From UHGV virus genome UHGV-0350075: a stretch of DNA of 53,531 nucleotides. One strand, given 5' to 3'. Of the stretch, positions 13,347-50,722 are shown piece after piece. The notes under the pieces were generated by a model, which worked only from the letters and a program-made list of their open reading frames with translations, had not been told where the DNA came from and did no database searches. Every line of letters starts with the position of its first letter. The stretch's first letter is position 1. A program made the position numbers and the translations under genes. The DNA comes from a virus.

Positions 13347-13997
13347 ATGACGAAGAAAACCCCTTTTGCAATAGGCGCAATGTTCCACCGCTTCCGTGGT
13401 GATATTCAGCCTTTTGAAGTAACCACGTTTTCAAGTTATTACGATTTTGGGACGGAGTATTACGCCGGATCTAAGGTAGGCGGTGAATCTTATACGCTGA
13501 TGGCTAATACGTGGCGCTTTGTGCGTTACTCTGAAAAGGATGATGACGGTATGAATAAAGAAAGTGAAATCATTGATGAATTAATCGAAGATGAGCGCCA
13601 TGATTGCGATGCGCCGGAAGTTACGGAATGGAAACCAGGAGAAAAGCCGCCGTGCGGCGTGTGGCTTGATTGTATTGGATTAGCAAGTGATAGAGTGATT
13701 GATGTCGTTAAGTTTTTCTACCTGGGCGATAAGTGGTCTATTGCTCACAGTAAGTTAGAAACGGGTATAGAAACACCGATTGCATGGAAACAATACTCAT
13801 ACCGCATTCACATTGACCCGAAAGAAAAAGCAATGACACGAATTGCGTTTGCGCTGGCTGTTGAGGTTATTGGTGAAGATGCGGCAAAAGAGATTAACTT
13901 TAACCGCGACAACGAATTTTCGCGCGATTGGCGCAATATGGCAAAAGCCATTATTAATGGCGATATTCCTTTTACTAATTACAATGGTGATGAGTAA
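13347..13997 (+). CDS. hypothetical protein
   Basis: Track ORF 216 aa; no motif recognised. Confidence 0.5.
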   Translation: MTKKTPFAIGAMFHRFRGDIQPFEVTTFSSYYDFGTEYYAGSKVGGESYTLMANTWRFVRYSEKDDDGMNKESEIIDELIEDERHDCDAPEVTEWKPGEKPPCGVWLDCIGLASDRVIDVVKFFYLGDKWSIAHSKLETGIETPIAWKQYSYRIHIDPKEKAMTRIAFALAVEVIGEDAAKEINFNRDNEFSRDWRNMAKAIINGDIPFTNYNGDE

Positions 13998-14215
13998 TGG
14001 ATAAGATCGGGACAATACTTATTAACCGTGAGCAAGTGCAAAAAATGTTAGGCGGGCTTAGCAAGTCCGCCTTTTTTAAGCTCGTTAAAAAATGGAAAGA
14101 AGCGGGAACTCCTTTCCCTGAACCTGTAAAGGGGATGCCAGCATTAAAGCGCGGGGGATCTCTTTACCGTTATCAGGACGTTATTTCATTTTGTAAATCG
14201 ATGGGCTTCATGTAG
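13997..14215 (+). CDS. putative excisionase-like HTH DNA-binding protein
   Basis: 72 aa; Xis/AlpA-like pattern (INREQVQKMLGGLSKSAFFKLVKK...); convergent with int, 3' ends overlap. Confidence 0.4.
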   Translation: MDKIGTILINREQVQKMLGGLSKSAFFKLVKKWKEAGTPFPEPVKGMPALKRGGSLYRYQDVISFCKSMGFM

Positions 14216-15372
14216 TAATCAGCCAGTTTATTCATCGCCTCGATTTGTTCCCTCACGTAATCATATTGATCATAGATAGCCATCATCCCCGCCAGTTTAT
14301 GACCCAAAACCTTTTCGGCTACGTGCGGCGCAACGCCAAGCGCTGAAAGGTTTGTCCTTACAGTGCGGCGTAGATCGTGACACGACCACGACTCGCCGCC
14401 CATCCTTAGCATCAAATCCCTTGCGGCTGTTTTCGGCACGCTCCTGTCTACCGCTTCATCCCTTCCAGAAAGCACTGGAACGAAGATAAAATTAAAGCCG
14501 TGCAAATCCATAGCTTCACGCAATAAACCTACGCTAACGTCGGATAAACCGCGCTTAAACTCATTTCTGTTCTTACTCAATGCACCCGGCACGGTCCACA
14601 CGCAGTTATCAAGATCGAAATGTTCGCGCCTTGCGTTTGTTAGTTCGCTTGTTCTGCATCCGGTGAATATAATCAGCTTCATCAATATCTGATTTAGCCG
14701 CGCCATTTTTGAACTGTCTATAATGCTGATTAGATGGTGAATCTCTTGTATTGATAAGACGCGTTTCCTTTGCGCCGGGTTTTTGCCTACGTCTTTCACG
14801 CGTAGCAATGATATGTCGTCACGCTCCACGCGGCGGCGTCGCATGGCATATTTTATCACCGCCTTCATCCTGTTTAAGACTATCCCTGCCTGAACGGGCG
14901 CGCCACCATTAGCTACCTTTCTAAAAATCCCCTCCCACATTATGGAGTCCATATCATCGACGATATAGCTACCGCATGGTCTGACAATGTGCTTACTTAG
15001 CATCGCCTCGACTTGCTTATAGTTGACCATGTTTCTTGCCTGCGGTGATTCCATGTACTCCATAACAATATCTTCAATCGTTGCCCGTGTCGTAACGCGG
15101 GACAAGTTCATTCTTTTTACGATCGATGGATCTCGCCCTGAGTTTAAGACTTCCTTATGCTCCGCCACCGCCGCGCGGGCTTCTTTGAGTGTTATTTCTC
15201 CGTAAGTGCCAATCTTCATCCGTCGCGGCTTGCCGTTGAATCGGTAGCGATACTGAAAAGATATAACGCCGTGCGGGCTTATCCTGGCAGACAATCCGCC
15301 CGCGTCCGGGACTTCTTTCGGGCCGTCATATGGCTTGCCGTGGATGTTTCGTAATTTGGTATCTGTAAGCAT
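14173..15372 (-). CDS. int: tyrosine integrase (P4-like family)
   Basis: Track ORF trimmed to ATG 15372 (MLTDTKLRN...); C-terminal HDLRRT and conserved Tyr region; upstream extension runs through an att repeat. Confidence 0.85.
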   Translation of the reverse strand: MLTDTKLRNIHGKPYDGPKEVPDAGGLSARISPHGVISFQYRYRFNGKPRRMKIGTYGEITLKEARAAVAEHKEVLNSGRDPSIVKRMNLSRVTTRATIEDIVMEYMESPQARNMVNYKQVEAMLSKHIVRPCGSYIVDDMDSIMWEGIFRKVANGGAPVQAGIVLNRMKAVIKYAMRRRRVERDDISLLRVKDVGKNPAQRKRVLSIQEIHHLISIIDSSKMARLNQILMKLIIFTGCRTSELTNARREHFDLDNCVWTVPGALSKNRNEFKRGLSDVSVGLLREAMDLHGFNFIFVPVLSGRDEAVDRSVPKTAARDLMLRMGGESWSCHDLRRTVRTNLSALGVAPHVAEKVLGHKLAGMMAIYDQYDYVREQIEAMNKLADYYMKPIDLQNEITS

Positions 15373-38125: not shown

Positions 38126-38987
38126 CTTTATAGTTTTCTTGCGCTCGATCTAATATTCTTTCGTTTAATATGTTACCGTCTTCGTCAACTAATACGGTAA
38201 TCGTGCTACATTTGCAGTTAATTGAATTTGGGGATCTGCTCCACCATTCGCGCTGCTCATCTATGGTGTATGTTTTCCCGTGCCGCTGCGCGTGCGATAG
38301 CCTGGTAGTCGGTGACAATGCCGAAATGTGCATTTGCATGGTGCGCAGATTAAGCTCTTCTGTCGCCGCTTCTGCCTCATCCATACGCGCTGTGCGTAAC
38401 GCTGTGCATATTTCAGTTCGGGCAATACGTTTGCACCTGTATAGCGGCAATTGCGTTTCCTGCTGCAATGTGCGCGCTATTTCCAGTGGATTTAAACCAC
38501 GGGCCATCCCTTCGGTTAATCGCCGGGCCATATCCTTCTTGATCTGTGCTGTTAGCCCGCGCATTTCCTCAAATACACGGGTACGAACAAGGGCAAGGCG
38601 CGTGCGGTAAGTCGTACTTGATAGCACGGCGGATACATCAGGATAAGCGCTTGAGTAAGTAACAGACTGGTTGGCAAGGTTGGCGTATTCCTGCGCGGTC
38701 CCTCGCTGATATGCAACCTTCACGTACTCCTGCCAAAACCAAAAACTTTCCGGGTCGGTTAGCTCGAATATCTCATCAATCATGTCGCTGGCGTCCTCCA
38801 GCATGTCGTGCAATTCATCCATGTAAATCTGGAAGGTGTATTTTTTATTAACAGCCAGGCTATATTGTATTCTGTCCAGTATGGCGATATATGGATCGGC
38901 TATTTTCTTCAGGCAGGATTTGAAACGCTTAATAGCCCCCGACCGTAACTTACCTGTCATGGTCGGGTCTTCGGTGTTAGATGGCAT
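38091..38987 (-). CDS. head morphogenesis protein (SPP1 gp7 / Mu F-like)
   Basis: Track ORF trimmed to ATG 38987; family-like pattern; directly after portal. Confidence 0.6.
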   Translation of the reverse strand: MPSNTEDPTMTGKLRSGAIKRFKSCLKKIADPYIAILDRIQYSLAVNKKYTFQIYMDELHDMLEDASDMIDEIFELTDPESFWFWQEYVKVAYQRGTAQEYANLANQSVTYSSAYPDVSAVLSSTTYRTRLALVRTRVFEEMRGLTAQIKKDMARRLTEGMARGLNPLEIARTLQQETQLPLYRCKRIARTEICTALRTARMDEAEAATEELNLRTMQMHISALSPTTRLSHAQRHGKTYTIDEQREWWSRSPNSINCKCSTITVLVDEDGNILNERILDRAQENYKVAHAKYGEDWE

Positions 38988-40377
38988 TATCGCGGAGGGC
39001 GGAATCTTTTTGATTATTCTCTTTACTTTCATCTTCATCTTTATCGTCCTCGTCTTCCACTTCTACTTCCTGCGTTGGCCCCTCATATCCGGCAGCTTCG
39101 CGGATCTCATCACCGCTGAATACCTGCTCACCAGTAGCAAGACATGCCTGATTGATTTGCGCCATCTTGTGTGCCGCTTCCAGTAGTTCGGCTTTGGTCA
39201 TAGCGTTAAGGTCATCCCATAGCACTGATATGTCGCGTGGCTCACTGGTAAGGCGTAGATCTGCCAGTTTGCGGAATAGTTCTTCAAGCTCGCCTCCGAT
39301 TTCCTGGCGGCGGGTCATGCATCGGTTATTGAAATAGCGGAGATCTTCAGTTGATGCTCGTTCACCCTGTTGATTCCCAACTAGGATACGCGTTGGAATG
39401 TCGATACCAGCGGCGGCGGTTTGCAGGTTTACATCATAGGTTGCGGACGGGTCAGATACGGCAGTTACCAGCGGGCTTACTGTTGCGCCCTGTAACGCCA
39501 TCATCACATCATTACCTTTATTCATTTCCGCTGCGGCTTCATTGAATTTTTCGCGTAACTCTGTGACGTCGCAGTCATACGTTGCAGCCAGTGAGCGGAA
39601 GTCAATTTCTTTGTCGAATGAGATGGCAAGCTGGCGTGCGGCGTTCTTCAGGAATGACTCACCACTACCACCTTCCACTTTCTCCAGCGAAACGAAAGCG
39701 TTATAGGATGGCTCAAGGAAAGCGATAGCATCATCAGAATAGTCACCAAAGATAAATATCCGGTCTGGATGTATTTTCCTTGCGATGGTCTTGCTGTTGA
39801 TGCGTTCTTTGTATTCCCACCATGTCGGCAGACCGTAGTTATCGCTATCCGGGTTTTCATCGAAGTCCTTTGGTGTTAGTGCGCCAGCCCATACAGGAGT
39901 GAATTTAGCGATGCCTACCCCTTTTGTTACTGGACGATCCCACGGCTGGTTATCTTTGACGTGAATCAATAGTCCGGCATAACGACCAACCAGGCGACGG
40001 CGATCGCATTCAGCAATAACACGCCAGAATCGGTTATCGAATTGTTTCTTTATTTCTCTTTCCCAGGGTGTTTCCGTTTCCGCTTTCTCGTCTTCAGTGC
40101 CTTCTATCAGCACCGGGCTATCGCGCCAGCATGTGGTGATAATTTTTTCAATGGCCCCGTGAGCAATACCACCGCGACGATACAGCTTATATAGATCAGT
40201 ATAGGTAAGCTCTTCTTTGAATCCGTATTCACTCCACGCGGCGTTACGTTTAGCATCGATCCCCATAGTGAATGGGTTAGCGGCTGCATAGCGGGCAAAG
40301 GCCGCCTGGCGTTGTGACAAGGCAGCATTAACCGCCAATTCTAAATTGGATGGCATAATGTTTACTCCTGAATACAT
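38977..40377 (-). CDS. portal protein
   Basis: 466 aa after terL; acidic C-terminus; size and synteny. Confidence 0.7.
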   Translation of the reverse strand: MYSGVNIMPSNLELAVNAALSQRQAAFARYAAANPFTMGIDAKRNAAWSEYGFKEELTYTDLYKLYRRGGIAHGAIEKIITTCWRDSPVLIEGTEDEKAETETPWEREIKKQFDNRFWRVIAECDRRRLVGRYAGLLIHVKDNQPWDRPVTKGVGIAKFTPVWAGALTPKDFDENPDSDNYGLPTWWEYKERINSKTIARKIHPDRIFIFGDYSDDAIAFLEPSYNAFVSLEKVEGGSGESFLKNAARQLAISFDKEIDFRSLAATYDCDVTELREKFNEAAAEMNKGNDVMMALQGATVSPLVTAVSDPSATYDVNLQTAAAGIDIPTRILVGNQQGERASTEDLRYFNNRCMTRRQEIGGELEELFRKLADLRLTSEPRDISVLWDDLNAMTKAELLEAAHKMAQINQACLATGEQVFSGDEIREAAGYEGPTQEVEVEDEDDKDEDESKENNQKDSALRDNAI

Positions 40378-40434: not shown

Positions 40435-41919
40435 TTAAAATCCGCGCAGGCGCTTCGGTAACATGAGGCCCATAGCCTGTGGCTGGCTTAGTTCGGTGAT
40501 ACCCCACACCATTGCATCCATACGGTCAGGGGATTTCTTAGCGGTAGCTGGCACGTATTCCATCATTTGATTTTCCAGCGTGTACAGCTCACCAGTGTGG
40601 GCCACCCTTCCTTGTGCATACAGTGCAGATATTGGTTCGGCACGGGCGAATTTACCCTTGCTTGCGTGCACCTTAACAATGCGGCCTTTGAATCCGGCGT
40701 TACGTAGCGTGGCCTCTGCCATTTCGCCGCCCTGGTTGGTTTCGATAACTATCGCGTCAGCTTCATGGATGTTATAAGCGTTCATTGATGCTTGCGCCCA
40801 GTCGTTAGGAGACATGCGGCCTGAGTAGTCACCGTCTACAGAATACTGAGCGTACTTGCCGCCACCATAAGCGGAACATGCTACGATCCCGGTTTCGTCC
40901 GATTCTTCCGATGATGTTGTCGCCGGGTCAATGGCTATCACGGTGCGGATCTTGTCCTGCGTTATCTGCATCCGGTGCGCTGCGGTTATCATCGCTTCAG
41001 TCCACAATGCACCCTCTTCGTCGAATTTACGCGGGCGCTGCATGTACTGGGCCTCAAATGACCGCCTGTGTGCTTTCAGTCCAGCTTCATGGGCGTCATT
41101 GTGCTTTTTAGGCCATAGCCAGCCGTCTGGCAGGTTGTGAGGAATAGGGATTGCGAACTCGTTTTCAGGGTACAAATCCCGGTAGTCAACGCTGTTGTCG
41201 ATCTTCACTGGCAAGTTCAGGTGATGCCATTTCTCACCACTCCCACCGCGTAGCAGGTAGCCGGACAAATCATCGTAGTGGATGCGCTGCATGATGACGA
41301 TAACAGGCGTCGTTTGCACTGCCAGACGTGAAGCAAGCGTGTCGTTATAGTTAGTGTTTACCTGCTTTCTCACCACGTCAGAGTAAGCGTCGGCGGGCTT
41401 TAATGGGTCGTCGATGATTAACGCACCGTTAAATCCTGGTTCCATATACCCCGCACGGAACCCAGTAACCTGGCCAAGCGATGACGTTGCATACACGCCG
41501 CCACCGTATTCAGTCCACCACATCGATTTACTGTTTGCATCGTTGCGGATCTTCATGGGCCACATTGCCTGATACTCAGGCGTACAGATCATGTTTCTTA
41601 CAGTTGAGGAGTTGAGTAGCGCCAGGTTGTTGGAATAGGAAACGTGAAGGAATCGTGTGCGGGGATTTATTGCGAGGGACCGCGCCATCATGTTGATAGT
41701 GGCGATCATGGTTTTGCCGTACCCTGGGGGGATGTTGATGATGAGTCGGGTTATCTCACCATTGACAACGCGTTGCAGTGCGTCGCGGATAGCTAAATGA
41801 TGGCCTGAGATTAACATCTTCGTTCCGTTCGCTTGCTTATAGAAGTAGCGATTGAAAAACAGGCCATCGTTTTCACATTTGGACTGAATAACTCGTTCTT
41901 TGATTGTCAACATAATCAC
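40435..41919 (-). CDS. terL: terminase large subunit
   Basis: 494 aa; Walker A-like PPGYGKTM; overlaps terS stop (ATGA). Confidence 0.85.
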   Translation of the reverse strand: MIMLTIKERVIQSKCENDGLFFNRYFYKQANGTKMLISGHHLAIRDALQRVVNGEITRLIINIPPGYGKTMIATINMMARSLAINPRTRFLHVSYSNNLALLNSSTVRNMICTPEYQAMWPMKIRNDANSKSMWWTEYGGGVYATSSLGQVTGFRAGYMEPGFNGALIIDDPLKPADAYSDVVRKQVNTNYNDTLASRLAVQTTPVIVIMQRIHYDDLSGYLLRGGSGEKWHHLNLPVKIDNSVDYRDLYPENEFAIPIPHNLPDGWLWPKKHNDAHEAGLKAHRRSFEAQYMQRPRKFDEEGALWTEAMITAAHRMQITQDKIRTVIAIDPATTSSEESDETGIVACSAYGGGKYAQYSVDGDYSGRMSPNDWAQASMNAYNIHEADAIVIETNQGGEMAEATLRNAGFKGRIVKVHASKGKFARAEPISALYAQGRVAHTGELYTLENQMMEYVPATAKKSPDRMDAMVWGITELSQPQAMGLMLPKRLRGF

Positions 41920-42401
41920 ACCTCATCTTCTACTTCCTGAACGATGCGGGCGATCTCTTCTTTTGTGACTTCTACCTGTACGGGCGCTTCTTCCCTGTTG
42001 CCTACGATTTCCTGCGTAACGCGTTCGCCATACTTACGCGGTTGCAGTTTTGCCAATAGCCATTTACGCGTTTCAATCATCAGTTGATGGCGGCGGCATT
42101 CGTCTTTATCGATGTTCTCCGCTGCATCGGCTATATCGATGATCTCATCAGCCAATACCTCAAAACCGATCTCCTTCGCGCGCATGTACATGTCCGAGAA
42201 CTCTGGCACGTCTCTGAACCATTTGAGGATTGTTGAACGCGCAGGCATATCAGGCATCTTCGAAATCTTGTTAATACTATGACCGTCCGCCACCAGCTCG
42301 CAGATTTCTAATGCCTTTTCTTCGGTATAACCATGCGGACGGCCCGTCTTTTTGGCTGCTGGCTTTTTGTCTTCAGCATTTGCCTTTTTAGTGCGGGCCA
42401 T
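41916..42401 (-). CDS. terS: terminase small subunit
   Basis: 161 aa; basic N-terminus with HTH; immediately upstream of terL. Confidence 0.7.
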   Translation of the reverse strand: MARTKKANAEDKKPAAKKTGRPHGYTEEKALEICELVADGHSINKISKMPDMPARSTILKWFRDVPEFSDMYMRAKEIGFEVLADEIIDIADAAENIDKDECRRHQLMIETRKWLLAKLQPRKYGERVTQEIVGNREEAPVQVEVTKEEIARIVQEVEDEV

Positions 42402-42411
42402 ATTTCACCTC

Positions 42412-42495
42412 TTAATATTTGTTGATGATATATACGCAAGCCACAAAACTTGCGCAGTATGTTAATACTTCAAGCCAGTCGAATAGCTCTTTCAT
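42412..42495 (-). CDS. hydrophobic microprotein (27 aa, MKELFDWLEVLTYCASFVACVYIINKY); array member 11
   Basis: Own translation; GAAGGG SD; 10 nt after previous array ORF. Confidence 0.4.
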   Translation of the reverse strand: MKELFDWLEVLTYCASFVACVYIINKY

Positions 42496-42505
42496 TGTTT
42501 ACCCT

Positions 42506-42577
42506 TCACATAATAGAAAGCGCCCATGTAATAAGGACGATAGCCAAAACCATATAGATAAAATCTGACTCTCTCAT
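42506..42577 (-). CDS. hydrophobic microprotein (23 aa, MRESDFIYMVLAIVLITWALSIM); array member 10
   Basis: Own translation; AAGGTGA SD. Confidence 0.4.
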   Translation of the reverse strand: MRESDFIYMVLAIVLITWALSIM

Positions 42578-42591
42578 ATTGTTCACCTTGT

Positions 42592-42660
42592 TTATGCGAA
42601 GAAAACAATAACAACTAACAGCGAACTTATCGCTATGATTAAGAAATCACTGTCAGACAT
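42592..42660 (-). CDS. hydrophobic microprotein (22 aa, MSDSDFLIIAISSLLVVIVFFA); array member 9
   Basis: Own translation; GGGGTGA SD; start overlaps upstream stop. Confidence 0.4.
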   Translation of the reverse strand: MSDSDFLIIAISSLLVVIVFFA

Positions 42661-42727
42661 TGATAATCACCCCTACGATAATTAACGCGGCGATGCATAC
42701 GAATAATACGGCTTCGATAACATCCAT
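42653..42727 (-). CDS. hydrophobic microprotein (24 aa, MDVIEAVLFVCIAALIIVGVIINV); array member 8
   Basis: Own translation; AGGTGAG SD. Confidence 0.4.
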   Translation of the reverse strand: MDVIEAVLFVCIAALIIVGVIINV

Positions 42728-42735
42728 TCGCTCAC

Positions 42736-42804
42736 CTATTGAGTCAGCGAGGTCATGGTGAGAACAATCGCAACAATCAGGAAAAAGAAATCAAGCCATT
42801 TCAT
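42736..42804 (-). CDS. hydrophobic microprotein (22 aa, MKWLDFFFLIVAIVLTMTSLTQ); array member 7
   Basis: Own translation; GGGAG SD; ATGA overlap with upstream ORF. Confidence 0.4.
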   Translation of the reverse strand: MKWLDFFFLIVAIVLTMTSLTQ

Positions 42805-42881
42805 TTTTTAAACTCCCGATAAACATCTACGGCAATGACTACAACTACAGCCACCAGCAATAGCATTTCGTATGCGTTCAT
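42801..42881 (-). CDS. hydrophobic microprotein (26 aa, MNAYEMLLLVAVVVVIAVDVYREFKK); array member 6
   Basis: Own translation; ATGA overlap with upstream ORF. Confidence 0.4.
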   Translation of the reverse strand: MNAYEMLLLVAVVVVIAVDVYREFKK

Positions 42882-42976
42882 TTGATGCTACCCATAACAA
42901 GGCCGATGATGATAATTATGGCGACAATGCCTAACATCATGCCGCACATAATCGCCAGTAATTCGAATATATCCAT
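42878..42976 (-). CDS. hydrophobic microprotein (32 aa, MDIFELLAIMCGMMLGIVAIIIIIGLVMGSIK); array member 5
   Basis: In-frame ATG inside track ORF 42878..43081 (whose TTG start is judged spurious); GGTGA SD. Confidence 0.4.
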   Translation of the reverse strand: MDIFELLAIMCGMMLGIVAIIIIIGLVMGSIK

Positions 42977-42984
42977 GCCGTCAC

Positions 42985-43059
42985 CTATACAACATTCTTC
43001 CACCAGAAATAGATAATGACGGCGACCAACGACCACCAGATGAGATCGTAAATATTCAT
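42985..43059 (-). CDS. hydrophobic microprotein (24 aa, MNIYDLIWWSLVAVIIYFWWKNVV); array member 4
   Basis: Own translation; GAAGGT SD. Confidence 0.4.
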   Translation of the reverse strand: MNIYDLIWWSLVAVIIYFWWKNVV

Positions 43060-43070
43060 GGTGAATACCT

Positions 43071-43145
43071 TCAGCTTTCAATGAATATCATGATCGCCAG
43101 CCATACAGCGACGCAGGCAGAAAGGATAATGAGCGGGTCAATCAT
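43071..43145 (-). CDS. hydrophobic microprotein (24 aa, MIDPLIILSACVAVWLAIMIFIES); array member 3
   Basis: Own translation; GGTGA SD; alternative in-frame ATG at 43157. Confidence 0.4.
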   Translation of the reverse strand: MIDPLIILSACVAVWLAIMIFIES

Positions 43146-43157
43146 ATTGTCACCCAT

Positions 43158-43253
43158 CTAATATTTGCTCTTTACGGTTATCAGCACGGCGATAACAAAG
43201 CCAACCAGAAATATAGATATGCCTATTAATCCGGCGATGGTGCTGTCGTCCAT
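43158..43253 (-). CDS. hydrophobic microprotein (31 aa, MDDSTIAGLIGISIFLVGFVIAVLITVKSKY); array member 2
   Basis: Own translation; TGATTATGGACGA junction with upstream ORF. Confidence 0.4.
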   Translation of the reverse strand: MDDSTIAGLIGISIFLVGFVIAVLITVKSKY

Positions 43254-43255
43254 AA

Positions 43256-43339
43256 TCAACCTACGGGCCATTTTGGGGAAAACATTACAATCGCAGTTCC
43301 AGCCGCGCCGATAAATACACCTAGCAGGAAAGTAAACAT
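43256..43339 (-). CDS. hydrophobic microprotein (27 aa, MFTFLLGVFIGAAGTAIVMFSPKWPVG); array member 1
   Basis: Own translation; GGGGGTGA SD; starts 2 nt after stop of 43342..43884. Confidence 0.4.
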   Translation of the reverse strand: MFTFLLGVFIGAAGTAIVMFSPKWPVG

Positions 43340-43341
43340 AA

Positions 43342-43884
43342 TCACCCCCGTTTAAAGCTCATAACGCGCGGTACAAGCGCTTCTTTTGCTTTCGGCTTAC
43401 GTTTGCCTTTCTTCGCGGTTTTTTCTTCTTCCTTCGGCTGTTCTGCCTGTTCTAATGCCTGCTCAACGACTTCAGCCGCCTGCATTGCCGCTACCTGTGC
43501 TTCGTTTGATTCTGCCAGGATAGGGAAAAATGCATCAAAGATGCGGCCCACCATGTAAGCGTAAGTCTCATTCGCCGGATGAGATGGATCAGTGGTAGCC
43601 ACGACGCCTACATCGCTTAAAACGTGAAATGTAGTGTGCGCCGCTTCATGGACCAGTGTTCCTAACTCATTGTCGAATACTGCGATCACGTAGAAGTTAC
43701 CGCCTTTCTCACCAGTGCAAGTAAGCGTCAATCCTCCTGCCAGTTCGAAATCAGGTTCGATCGGAATTCCTGCCTTTTCGCAAAATTCATAAAACATCTC
43801 GCGAGTCGGGCAGAAGAAAACTGTTGTATGCTCAAAGAGCGGGACTTTGAATTGAGGCAACTTAATGCCTTTACCCTTAGCCAT
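43342..43884 (-). CDS. HExxH-motif protein (putative zinc metallopeptidase) with Lys-rich C-terminus
   Basis: 180 aa; single HExxH (TLVHEAAHTTFHV); first gene of operon with microprotein array and terminase. Confidence 0.5.
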   Translation of the reverse strand: MAKGKGIKLPQFKVPLFEHTTVFFCPTREMFYEFCEKAGIPIEPDFELAGGLTLTCTGEKGGNFYVIAVFDNELGTLVHEAAHTTFHVLSDVGVVATTDPSHPANETYAYMVGRIFDAFFPILAESNEAQVAAMQAAEVVEQALEQAEQPKEEEKTAKKGKRKPKAKEALVPRVMSFKRG

Positions 43885-44162
43885 CAGAATATTCCTCTAT
43901 CCTGAAAAATATAACCCCCGCAAAACTCGACACCGCAGGGAGTGAAAACAGCTATAAAACACTGAAAACGGCGCTTAATCAGTACCGTTTCCAGAATTTT
44001 ATAAAATTGGTGAATGGCGCTTTCTTCTGCCCAGGTAGCGCCGACCTGTTAATGGGATGGATGATCCGGCATTACGTGTTTTCGACTATTCCGCCGTCGC
44101 TCGCGGGAAGGATTGACCCGGTTATGGCTGGCTGGCGGAAACGGCGACACGTCCACGCGCTG

Positions 44163-44633
44163 TTATTCTTTGCGTAAGCACTGCGTTTTGATGTAGTCCT
44201 GTAATCCGGCGATCTTCGCGTCTTTCTCTTTTAGTTGTTCTCTGAGGGATAGATAAGCCGATTCAGCGTCTGGAGTGAGTCTACAGGTGGCTCCATCAAT
44301 GCGGCTGGCGGTTCCGGTATTGTCGAGCAATCGCACTGGTTCGGCGTTGACGTGCAACCTGATAGCACCGCTATCAATGCCAGCGCGAAGATCGGCAATG
44401 TCAGATCTGATAGCTTTAATCTCATCGTGATACCTCTTATCAAGTTTTGACAGTTCGGCGTTTCGCTCCTTCATCTGCTGAATGGTATTACTTGCTGTTT
44501 TTAGTGCGCCTTGCGTCACCGTGACTTCTTGCTGTAACCTTGCTGCCTCCCCCTGGTAATAACATGTAACGGCAGTTAGTCCGGCAATAATGCAAACAAC
44601 AACGGCAATAATTAACGCCTTTACCTTGTCCAT
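44163..44633 (-). CDS. i-spanin (Rz-like)
   Basis: 156 aa; N-terminal TM anchor then coiled coil; start overlaps endolysin 3' end; contains embedded o-spanin. Confidence 0.7.
44231..44425 (-). CDS. o-spanin (Rz1-like lipoprotein) embedded in Rz in another frame
   Basis: Track ORF 44231..44443 trimmed to MRLKL...; lipobox LSGC then Pro-rich short mature peptide. Confidence 0.55.
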   Translation of the reverse strand: MRLKLSDLTLPIFALALIAVLSGCTSTPNQCDCSTIPEPPAALMEPPVDSLQTLNRLIYPSENN

Positions 44634-45112
44634 GTTTCACCCCATTCGCAAACGGCATATTCAACATCACGGCGGTTAATTAACCCTTGCCACTGTTTAC
44701 CACCAGCGTAGATCCAGCGTTTAAGCTGTGCGCACGCCTCTGATTTCTTGCCGTCATTGAGTAGTTTTAATAAGGTTGATGTTTTGAAATTGGTTGCGCC
44801 TACGTTATAGGCGAATGAATAAAGCGCCGCGCGGGTAAAATCTGATATTTCGACTTTAATATATGGGTCAATCGCTTTTGCGGTTTTGTGGAGATCTTTA
44901 CTTAACAAAGCATCGCATTCTGATTGCGTGTAAGTCTTACCTAACATAATGTCTTTTCCGGTATGACCATAACATACAGTCCATACACCGATAACATCAC
45001 GATAGGGATCGTACTCCACGCCCTCTAATGGTTTAACCATCACAGCCGCAATAGCGATCGCCCCACCAGCCGCCGCAGCAATAATCTTATTCTTCAGCGA
45101 TTGGCTAATCAT
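44621..45112 (-). CDS. SAR endolysin (lysozyme-like)
   Basis: Track lists 44621..45193 as '+', but only the reverse strand translates to this protein (checked by hand; TTG at 45193); ATG 45112 gives Gly/Ala-rich SAR segment then E-8aa-D-5aa-T catalytic triad. Confidence 0.8.
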
Positions 45113-45113
45113 G

Positions 45114-45314
45114 TTACTTATTCCCCATTCGCGCGTCGTGTTCCTCTTGCGCTCGCTTATTCTCCTGTGATTTGAAGTAATAATTGACGGCAAATGTGCC
45201 TACGGTTGATAAGATACCCACAAAGACGGCAATGTCATTGATGGTTATCGCGCCGAAAAAAGCAGTTACGGCCCCAGTCACATACGCGCACGCCTCCCGT
45301 ATTCTGTCGAACAT
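45114..45314 (-). CDS. class II holin (pinholin-like)
   Basis: 66 aa; two TM segments plus charged C-terminus; stop 1 nt before endolysin start. Confidence 0.75.
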
Positions 45315-45329
45315 AGATTTACCTCCAAC

Positions 45330-45357
45330 AAAGCAAAAACCCGGCGCGGTGCCGGGT
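45330..45357 (-). terminator. intrinsic terminator 20 nt upstream of holin (tR'-like, candidate Q target)
   Basis: CCCGGC-accgc-GCCGGG followed on reverse strand by TTTTTGCTTTGTT, then GGAGG SD and holin ATG. Confidence 0.55.
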
Positions 45358-45419
45358 AATTACAATTTCGCATTGTTAGGAAATATTTTAATCTATTTGT
45401 TTTTTATGCGCGATTATGG

Positions 45420-45617
45420 TTACAAATCACCAACCTTGCGCCAGTATCCGTGATTAACCATCGTGATAACTTCTTTCGCTGTCATAGGTAAAAATGGCTC
45501 ATGCCACCGATCAAGACTACCAAGACGCATCAAAACGTGCTCACCTTCGAGGCGGTAATAAGCTCGCGTAGCCAATGACTGATAAACGCCATCATATTCA
45601 TGGTCGCTATTTCCCAT
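45420..45617 (-). CDS. hypothetical protein
   Basis: Track ORF 65 aa. Confidence 0.4.
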   Translation of the reverse strand: MGNSDHEYDGVYQSLATRAYYRLEGEHVLMRLGSLDRWHEPFLPMTAKEVITMVNHGYWRKVGDL

Positions 45618-49819: not shown

Positions 49820-50000
49820 CCCGTTTGTAAATTTTGACTGGCTTAATTGGGATGGCTGGTAATTCTCCTTCGTTTAACGCGCTCGCCATACCCAATATTA
49901 AGCGTGCTTCAGTACCAGTGACTTTCTTACACCATGCGCCGCCTGTTTTATCTTGAAATAAGATAACAGCAAACTGATCGTTTATTTCCAGCTTACCCAT
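49800..50000 (-). CDS. hypothetical protein
   Basis: Track ORF 66 aa directly downstream of Q. Confidence 0.45.
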   Translation of the reverse strand: MGKLEINDQFAVILFQDKTGGAWCKKVTGTEARLILGMASALNEGELPAIPIKPVKIYKRGDDDET

Positions 50001-50722
50001 TATTCACCCCGTGTCACTCGTTTAATCTCACTTTCCGCGCGGGCCTCTTCTTTGAATAGCTCCGCTATGGCGTCTTCATAGAAAACCCGGTATTTCTTCC
50101 ACCATGTTGATCTGCTTACCGGAAAAACAAGCTGATTAACCGCCTGCCGGACAAGATCTACAGGGAAACGTGAGTACCCGCGCCCGCCGCAATGCTGGCA
50201 CGTTTTAAACACTGGCATTTCCGCCGCTTCGCTGGCTGCTTTATCCGGTATTTCGCCGCGCCCCTTGCATTGTTTACAATGATTGCGAACCTTTCCATGC
50301 CCCTTGCATTTTTTGCAAAGGTGTTTTTCTCCGTAGTCGTCAAACGTAAATTTATATCCGCCGCACTCCATACAAGTTTTTTCCGTCGCGGCGCTTTGGC
50401 AATAATCCCGAAACGCGAAAACGGCAACAAGAATAATGAGATCATTGCGTTGTGCCTCGTTCAGTTCCATGACGTATTCATAATCTTTTGCCATAGCTCT
50501 TAAACGCTCTGTAAGCAAAACTACGGCCCTGTGTTTTTCGGCTTGTGATAGTTCCATCTTTCCCAAAAAAGCGCTATATCCAAGCTCTACGCGCGATTGC
50601 GCCATACCCGCAGCGGTTAGCGCATCCGTCGTATTAAGAGCGTCCGGGGACGTGCCCCGGCTTTCGTCAGATAATCGCGGTGATTTAGGAAAGTGGAATT
50701 TTAGAATGGATTCTAAATTCAT
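50000..50722 (-). CDS. Q: late-gene antiterminator Q (lambda Q-like)
   Basis: 240 aa; N-terminus MNLESILKFHFPKSPRLSD...AAGMAQS matches lambda Q as recalled; Cys-rich zinc-binding region. Confidence 0.8.
   Translation of the reverse strand: MNLESILKFHFPKSPRLSDESRGTSPDALNTTDALTAAGMAQSRVELGYSAFLGKMELSQAEKHRAVVLLTERLRAMAKDYEYVMELNEAQRNDLIILVAVFAFRDYCQSAATEKTCMECGGYKFTFDDYGEKHLCKKCKGHGKVRNHCKQCKGRGEIPDKAASEAAEMPVFKTCQHCGGRGYSRFPVDLVRQAVNQLVFPVSRSTWWKKYRVFYEDAIAELFKEEARAESEIKRVTRGE

Follow-up and report, generated by a model that had tools for sequence, protein, structure and literature searches.

Does the open reading frame (ORF) of 180 amino acids that follows the lysis genes in the virus genome UHGV-0350075 encode a metallopeptidase, and is this protein functionally tied to the very small hydrophobic ORFs that come after it? 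Both ideas had been put forward in a sequence-only reading of this DNA, in which the gene was placed at the head of an operon of microproteins and terminase and was preceded by a gap with a possible promoter or small RNA; the link with the peptides (processing, immunity or release) was offered there as speculation. The whole stretch of 53,531 nucleotides that was analysed is referred to as the window, and its positions are counted from its first letter. The outcome was mostly clarifying: a genuine motif, no support for the peptide link, and a gap that carries conserved hairpins and not a recognisable promoter or known RNA gene.

Phage identity and gene order of the late region

Matches of the region were found in Escherichia phage MagusPhagus (96.7% identity) and in the phages mEp010, mEp013, mEp021, mEp044, mEp515 and mEp554. 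On the basis of its sequence, the window is from an mEpimmI-group coliphage, kin of mEp021 and MagusPhagus. The mEpimmI group comprises temperate, Nus-dependent coliphages, and the paper that describes them contains no discussion of the 180-aa gene (PMC11893012). This prophage type was carried by 35 of 5,426 complete E. coli genomes, in every one of which the 180-aa gene is annotated as hypothetical. In the records of MagusPhagus and mEp021 the homologue is likewise annotated as a hypothetical protein.

All genes of the late region described here are on the minus strand (-). A Q-type antiterminator (PF03589, identified by profile) is encoded at 50000-50722 and is followed by many small ORFs, up to a strong terminator-like hairpin at 45339-45357 (-) that was detected in the terminator scan and that precedes the holin gene (45114-45314). 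The genes for endolysin (44621-45193), Rz (44163-44633) and Rz1 (44231-44443) come next. An intergenic leader of 278 bp (43885-44162, -) separates Rz from the 180-aa ORF (43342..43884, -), which is zincin-like, homologous to mEp021 gp49 (mEp021_49) and a member of PHROG 1365. Downstream are the array of 11 hydrophobic micro-ORFs of 22-37 aa (42412..43339, -), terS (41916..42401, -), terL (40435-41919, -) and the portal gene (38977-40377, -). The terS product belongs to the Sf6_terminase family (Pfam PF20901, E=4.5e-37), and an Sf6-type terminase suggests headful packaging. The possibility that a cos or pac site may lie within the gap was considered.

The 180-aa protein and its family

The ORF was found as previously described, starting with ATG and encoding a single HExxH motif and a basic tail. 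The motif is HEAAH, the sole HExxH of the protein, and the codons of H79-E80-A-A-H83 (residues 79-83) are at 43636..43650 (-), as read from the sequence. Locally the motif extends to HExxHxxxH in this phage, with H87 not conserved family-wide. The codons of N105-E106-T-Y-A-Y110 (43555..43572, -) specify the beginning of the helix that comes next after that of the HExxH; they include a Glu, which is the putative third zinc ligand, and an invariant Tyr. The conserved catalytic-type domain extends over residues 1-137 (43474..43884, -), has a pI of 4.8, and is the only part shared by the homologues of ~120 aa. The Lys/Arg-rich tail consists of the last 32 residues (149-180; 43345..43440, -), which are disordered in the full-length AlphaFold model (pLDDT <50), contain 12 K/R against 4 D/E and have a pI of 10.5. 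It ends in VPRVMSFKRG, a terminal motif kept in a homologue with 62% identity (P0118) and present as the variant VPRIARYKRG in another with 48% identity (P0121); most family members have no tail.

The protein matched PHROG 1365 with E=9.8e-30, residues 3-131 aligning to profile positions 5-124 of 127. This is a family without assigned function, which includes Orf-129 of ST64T, HkcC of HK620 and an unannotated ORF of P22; a literature search for hkcC returned nothing relevant. A word-indexed search retrieved ~120 near-identical E. coli prophage proteins, and an exhaustive profile search retrieved at least 215 representative clusters at E<=1e-3. Most cluster representatives were stand-alone proteins of 110-140 aa aligning to residues ~3-125, and stand-alone proteins of 120-190 aa were found throughout the family. 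Two homologues carry names given by their depositors, 'PolyVal Metallopeptidase superfamily domain' and 'SprT-like family protein'.

Residues H79, E80, H83, E106 and Y110 were invariant in both alignments that were made, one with 44 and one with 51 homologues, extending to ~23-26% identity. G51 did not vary among the 44 and hardly varied among the 51, and P15, L16, F17, F70 and N105 were nearly invariant in the 51-member alignment. The doubt that the HExxH might be coincidental is removed by its invariance in every aligned homologue. The proteins ST64T Orf-129, phage L Orf129, ST104 ORF47, epsilon34 gp70 and HK620 HkcC are true homologues, with 38-46% identity over ~122 residues (tblastn). The Orf-129-type proteins and HkcC have the H-E-H-E-Y residues in common with the window protein; they differ in their length of 120-129 aa, lacking the helix and basic tail of ~50 residues, and their genes are not followed by micro-ORFs in any case.

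Predicted fold and placement among metalloprotease families

The AlphaFold2 model of residues 1-137, computed from the 51-sequence alignment, had a pLDDT of 90.7 and a pTM of 0.85. Its elements are, in order, two short strands (11-13 and 21-25), the backing helix (28-38), strands 51-57 and 63-69 forming a beta-hairpin, the helix with the HExxH (74-91), and a long helix (104-136) that starts with N105-E106, E106 being 22 residues past H83. The zincin MPTase core of phage and plasmid domains is composed of a sheet, an N-terminal helix, the HExxH helix and the helix with the Glu ligand (PMC5512222), and the predicted layout matches this core. The model has the features of the gluzincin type, namely an HExxH on a helix, a Glu on the next helix, and an N-terminal sheet with a backing helix. 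Foldseek against BFVD gave matches at E<1e-3 to 24 phage proteins. Almost all of these are uncharacterised, and the few named ones were 'SprT-like' or 'Metalloprotease'. Sequence searches of the PDB with two profiles returned chance matches only. The metallopeptidase-like nature first proposed from the motif is upheld by the invariant HExxH with its downstream Glu and Tyr and by the confident model with the secondary-structure layout of a zincin.

The 180-aa protein had no Pfam match, and scans of this protein and of the 44-51 homologues with Pfam, NCBIfam and PADLOC gave nothing at curated thresholds. The SprT-like family (PF10263, gathering cut-off 25.6 bits) was the most frequent Pfam neighbour below threshold, matched by 17 of 51 members; the window protein itself was unmatched at E<=10, and the homologues reached at most 13.9 bits, over 16-20 residues around the HExxH. 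The hhalign comparison of the family profile with E. coli SprT/YggI gave a probability of 2%. MPTase-PolyVal (PF18818) and M78 were each matched by one of 51 members, at E~0.1. Against R388 ArdC the hhalign probability was 7%, and against an alignment of nine plasmid ArdC sequences built here it was 10.8% (E=0.0028), with 52 columns in register from the backing helix to the HExxH. The NCBIfam family TIGR04267 (aKG-HExxH, mod_HExxH) was matched below threshold by 19 of 51 members, over ~29 residues at the HExxH and with 12-17 bits vs a cut-off of 40.

Membership in the SprT, ArdC and ImmA families was not established, as no curated threshold was reached and the hhalign probabilities were weak; the profile check that had been suggested for a SprT-like, ImmA/IrrE-like or M78 placement thus led to none of these. 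The domain is best filed as a zincin-type (gluzincin-like) domain outside the named families. The protein thus adds a member to a known but uncharacterised family, which automated pipelines already tag as zincin-like.

Comparison with the named families shows where the protein stands. SprT-like/Spartan/Wss1 proteins (PF10263) are DNA-dependent metalloproteases that are likewise small zincins with the HExxH at a similar place of the domain, and the mEpimmI version also has a basic, possibly nucleic-acid-binding appendage; the phage protein differs in its third ligand, likely Glu and not His, and in having no zinc ribbon. With ArdC/MPTase-PolyVal, likewise zincins of mobile elements, it shares the core described above (sheet, N-terminal helix and the helices with HExxH and Glu), whereas it is stand-alone, without an ArdC-N domain, and not part of a multidomain polyvalent protein. 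ImmA/IrrE (M78) anti-repressor proteases of phages and ICEs are similar in the HExxH with a downstream Glu and in being encoded by mobile elements, but the phage gene has no adjoining HTH repressor gene, its neighbours being Rz and micro-ORFs or terS.

Genomic contexts of the homologues

The genes for ST64T Orf-129, phage L Orf129, ST104 ORF47 and epsilon34 gp70 are located after the lysis genes and one gene before terS, and an equivalent IMG/VR locus was checked with Pfam. HK620 and P22 have the gene within the immI region, flanked by sieA and orf59a. In HK620 its product is HkcC, while the P22 homologue is an intact ORF of 120-125 aa that has no annotation in the RefSeq record. In three lineages with three terminase families the stop codon is 3-10 nt from terS; these are a P22-like lineage with Terminase_3 (L004), a lineage with an Sf6-type terminase whose protein has 48% identity and the tail (L007), and a lineage with Terminase_2 (L014). 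In a Yersinia prophage (L109) a PF18894 'PhageMetallopep' gene separates the zincin gene from the packaging genes downstream. Other distant phages have the gene in a nin-like region, behind replication genes or with methylase genes around it, and in one locus (L112) it is near an Antirestrict-family gene. Taken together, these contexts suggest a mobile accessory gene that prefers the slot just upstream of terS, the association not being strict.

The micro-ORF array and its junction with the 180-aa gene

Eleven consecutive hydrophobic ORFs of 22-37 aa were counted ahead of terS, in agreement with the earlier count. The distance of 2 nt between the stop of the 180-aa ORF and the first micro-ORF was also found as reported: TGA (43342-43344) is followed by TT and by the ATG (43337-43339) of a hydrophobic ORF of 27 aa. 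The junction GGGTGATTATG (43337..43347, -) thus contains the last Gly codon, TGA, TT and the ATG of micro-ORF 1, whose Shine-Dalgarno sequence is the purine-rich end of the zincin ORF. A GTG at 43345 would give a 4-nt overlap instead. The KRG-stop-TT-ATG junction (stop, 2 nt and ATG) was kept in 51 of 53 mEpimmI loci.

The TGATTATG junction is also used at the border of micro-ORF 1 and micro-ORF 2 and at that of terS and terL. The sequence GGNTGATTATG was found exactly at the first of these borders and with one mismatch at the second, and it had 14 matches in the window vs 3.8 expected. Since the same junction is used at other gene borders, it points to generic operon packing, the general way in which late genes are joined in this phage. 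The translational coupling of peptidase and peptides that had been deduced from the spacing therefore stands in one part, the tight junction being real, and falls in the other, as the junction is not specific to the peptides.

Fusion proteins of the zincin with micro-ORF 1 (P0003, P0004) prompted the consideration of a programmed frameshift between both. This was rejected, because the fusions correspond to one extra G in a G-run of single assemblies and no canonical slippery heptamer is present in frame.

In all 52 mEpimmI loci a stretch of 318-1154 bp with 3-12 hydrophobic micro-ORFs lies between the zincin gene and terS. In the other lineages terS could be located in 16 loci; no hydrophobic micro-ORF was found in any of them, and the zincin gene is often directly adjacent to terS. 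The content of the array varies among relatives. Among mEpimmI loci, microproteins of at least six unrelated types follow the unchanged junction, and the gene next to that of the zincin in mEp013 encodes an HNH endonuclease.

These data bear on the proposal that the peptidase processes or releases eleven membrane micropeptides, or gives immunity to them, in a bacteriocin- or RiPP-like operon. It finds some backing in the conserved tight junction, in the joint presence of gene and array throughout the mEpimmI loci, and in the matches of 19 of 51 members to the peptide-modifying family TIGR04267. Against these, the gene occurs without an array in 16 loci of other lineages, often joined directly to terS; the downstream cassette is exchanged among unrelated types; in mEp013 an HNH gene is inserted behind the zincin gene; the junction is shared by other gene borders; and the TIGR04267 matches are short and far below the cut-off. 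Additionally, the protein is predicted to be soluble and cytoplasmic, while the peptides are single-pass hydrophobic and share no leader. We therefore hold such a role to be very improbable. The co-occurrence of enzyme and peptide arrays across lineages, on which the proposal had been made to depend, was not observed, as homologues outside the mEpimmI clade were never accompanied by an array. The array resembles a cassette inserted, in this clade only, between the zincin gene and terS, which are adjacent in relatives, and as such it would not be a partner of the peptidase. The main value of the analysis for the window is this negative result, that a peptidase servicing the micropeptides is unsupported and that the array appears as an independent, cassette-like insertion.

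Proposed function

The evidence from alignments and model leans towards a stand-alone, minimal gluzincin-like zinc metallohydrolase, most probably a peptidase, of the uncharacterised PHROG 1365 family. In such an enzyme zinc would be held by H79 and H83 of the active-site helix and by E106 of the next helix, E80 would act as the general base, and the invariant Y110 would line the pocket. The mEpimmI version adds to this core a long helix and the disordered basic tail with its conserved C-terminal, docking-type motif. Because the tail is basic and disordered and its terminal motif is conserved, it may be a tether that holds the enzyme on nucleic acid or on an acidic partner, as in DNA-associated zincins like SprT/Spartan or ArdC. 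Zincins of the SprT/Spartan type are organised with such tethering and docking parts. An organisation with such a tether is also known for zincins of the ArdC type (PMC5512222). The gene comes first in the section of the late operon for packaging and head, and it would be expressed late, together with the packaging genes. Its stop is packed against the next start like other junctions of the operon.

Other roles were weighed against this reading. That the HExxH domain is not a peptidase at all, and is a metal-binding regulatory or scaffolding protein or belongs to another class of HExxH enzymes, is quite unlikely in view of the invariant zincin constellation (HExxH and then a Glu ~22 residues past the second His, on the next helix), the sheet and backing-helix layout of the model, and the metalloproteases among its named structural neighbours. 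A packaging accessory acting with the small terminase, which would clear DNA-bound proteins from the concatemer or process a packaging or head protein, is in agreement with the basic tail and with the position of the gene within one gene of terS in the mEpimmI, L007-type, P22-like (L004, ST64T), L014-type and Yersinia L109 phages, lineages with different terminase families, in three of which the spacing to terS is of 3-10 nt. Nevertheless, the gene is in the immI region in P22 and HK620 and among nin, replication or methylase genes in others, many phages with the same terminase types do not carry it, and lambdoid and P22-like phages are known to be mosaic between the lysis genes and terS, where accessory genes are carried. 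Position does not imply a packaging-specific role, given that several distant phages have the gene in an early, nin or immI region and not beside terS, and we regard this role as unlikely.

A protease for counter-defence or host takeover would degrade a host protein such as a restriction factor or another defence factor, and through its basic tail it might ride on DNA as ArdC rides on the DNA of conjugative plasmids. The 52-column similarity to the ArdC domain, weak and in register, would fit with this, as would the name 'PolyVal metallopeptidase' given to one homologue by its depositor, the accessory and mobile distribution of the gene over many phage types and genome positions, and the Antirestrict-family gene nearby in L112. 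However, the hhalign probability against ArdC was only 10.8%, and PADLOC and the other libraries gave nothing. Furthermore, in the record of mEp021, a phage with 16 virion proteins mapped by mass spectrometry, the homologue does not carry the label 'virion structural', which is weak evidence against co-packaging. This role is accordingly considered doubtful.

A more far-reaching idea, which we also rate as unlikely, is that the zincin gene and terS formed an ancestral pair, that the protease, tethered by its tail to DNA or to the packaging machinery, would act on DNA-bound proteins at packaging or be co-injected as an ArdC-like counter-defence protease, and that in mEpimmI phages the junction of stop and ribosome-binding site would serve as a landing pad for a fast-evolving array of membrane micropeptide cassettes. 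If true, this would represent a new class of phage late accessory protease, unannotated in P22 too.

For the favoured reading, a stand-alone gluzincin-like enzyme, the candidate catalytic residues H79, E80, H83, E106 and Y110 provide a testable handle in tractable phages such as P22 or mEp021. The family is present in the textbook phages P22, HK620, ST64T, L and epsilon34, in gut E. coli prophages and in many others, and it has no Pfam model.

The 278-bp leader and its hairpins

The gap of 278 bp after Rz (43885-44162) was confirmed, and in relatives a gap of 261-337 nt is found at the same place, in some of them with an extra block of ~58 nt. It had been described as having no ORF, which is correct for conserved ORFs; two ORFs do exist, one of 35 aa starting with GTG (44049-44156, -) and one of 56 aa starting with TTG (44007-44177, +), and they are called in some PHANOTATE-based annotations of relatives. 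Both were rejected as genes, their frames and lengths being unconserved across ~40 related loci.

No sigma-70 promoter-like site was detected in the gap in a promoter scan of 42300-45500, and no Rfam match was obtained there in a search of the same interval. On the other hand, the RNA of the gap was more structured than shuffled controls, with z = -3.2 for the whole gap and -3.8 for its 3' half. Of the suggestion that the gap might hold a promoter or a small RNA, what remains is a set of conserved RNA hairpins, with neither a sigma-70 match nor an Rfam family.

Hairpin H1 (43952..44004, -), a predicted intrinsic terminator, has in the MFE fold an imperfect 22-bp stem UUAUAAAAU-UCUGGAAACGGU ... 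GCCGUUUUCAG-GUUUUAUAG, of which the outer arms are the A-tract UUAUAAAAU and the U-tract GUUUUAUAG. Among 31 distinct sequences its pairing was kept in 97% of cells vs 42-53% with slid partners. Three pairs showed double changes, and no shuffle reached the observed covariation score. In the lineage with 48% identity (L007) the inner stem is rebuilt with different bases through compensatory changes. The same hairpin is the predicted terminator TERM_6 in the mEp021 record and T11 in the mEp013 record. Hairpin H2 (43915..43941, -) is terminator-like, with a 9-bp G+C-rich stem followed by UUAUAUUUUU; at its place relatives have two other sequence versions, which are also hairpin-forming and not always followed by a U-run. 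Neither H1 nor H2 was flagged by the simple terminator scan. Finally, a small hairpin (43889..43912, -) with the Shine-Dalgarno sequence GAGGA (43898-43903) in its loop is located just before the ATG (43882-43884), and AUUCUG before the zincin AUG is invariant among mEpimmI loci.

The simplest reading of the gap is that of one or more internal terminators and a structured translation-initiation region in a Q-dependent late operon. Transcription would pass the one or two terminator-like hairpins of the leader, presumably by means of the Q-type antiterminator encoded upstream. The arrangement resembles the Q-antiterminated late operons of lambdoid phages (lambda tR') in its A/U-tract hairpin, its G+C hairpin with a U-run and its PF03589 antiterminator. 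It differs in that the predicted hairpins are after the lysis cassette and not directly after the late promoter, and in that some H2 alleles of relatives have no U-run. The leader hairpins are thus candidate internal terminators of a late operon with a Q-type antiterminator. This antiterminator is present in the operon of a phage of the mEpimmI group, which has been described as N-like and 'non-lambdoid'.

Variability of the micro-ORF array

The array of 11 hydrophobic micro-ORFs (window 42412-43339, minus strand), which lies between the zincin gene and terS, behaves like a cassette system; its length (318-1154 bp), ORF number (3-12) and content all differ among otherwise ~90%-identical phages. 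The comparison comprised the window and the related loci L001-L003, L011-L013 and L017-L062. In L013, the zincin (putative zinc protease) was only 62% identical, yet some of the micro-peptides were identical, for example MKELFDWLEVLTYCASFVACVYIINKY and MNAYEMLLLVAVVVVIAVDVYREFKK.

The stop-TT-ATG motif (GGN)TGATTATG was present at the border of the zincin gene and micro-ORF 1 (window 43337-43347), again between micro-ORF 1 and micro-ORF 2 (window 43251-43261) and, with one mismatch, at the terS/terL border (window 41911-41921), in all cases on the minus strand. Over the whole window, 14 matches with up to one mismatch were observed versus 3.8 expected. Two database proteins from Escherichia coli assemblies, P0003 (209 aa) and P0004 (211 aa), extend beyond the zincin stop. 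P0003 runs directly into micro-ORF 1 (…FKRGVIMFTFLLG…), fitting one additional G in the G-run ahead of TGA; the frameshift behind this fusion probably arose by mutation or in assembly.

Surroundings of the zincin gene

Relatives carry mobile insertions near the zincin gene. An HNH endonuclease gene is located directly 3' of zincin in phage mEp013 (L003 3895-4380), and an HNH gene is placed between those of endolysin and Rz in L013 (3752-4273). Upstream of position 6001 of L034 the usual hairpin-bearing leader is absent and a different, apparently coding sequence is found there instead. The Rz-proximal half of the gap between Rz and zincin (window 44025-44162, minus strand) has a G+C content of 58% and is almost invariant among mEpimmI phages (alignment A6); mEp021, mEp013 and mEp010 carry an additional block of ~58 nt after it.

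Q-type antiterminator and terminator-like hairpin

A Q-type antiterminator protein of 240 aa is encoded at window 50000-50722 (minus strand), in which a DnaJ-type zinc finger accompanies the Pfam Antiterm (phage Q) domain. The paper describing these phages emphasises an N-like antiterminator, Gp17 (PMC11893012), and no mention of a Q-type late antiterminator was found in it. The holin gene is closely preceded by a strong terminator-like hairpin (window 45339-45357, minus strand), which consists of ACCCGGCACCGCGCCGGGT with TTTTTGC after it. This hairpin corresponds to TERM_5/T9-T10 in the records of relatives and, provided that the numbering agrees, also to the experimentally shown t5.

Homologues in other phages

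Phage P22 carries a zincin homologue as an intact ORF of 120-125 aa (L097 2489-2866, plus strand; NC_002371.2, about 13849-14226), containing HECAH...NETYCY and unannotated in the P22 RefSeq record. It is situated between sieA and orf59a, overlapping the annotated sieA promoter, and its counterpart in HK620 is hkcC. In a Yersinia enterocolitica prophage contig (L109 4001-5085), a zincin homologue of 147 aa is followed at once by a gene for a second putative metallopeptidase of 211 aa (PF18894 PhageMetallopep). Next in order are DUF2280, a large ORF of terminase size and portal.
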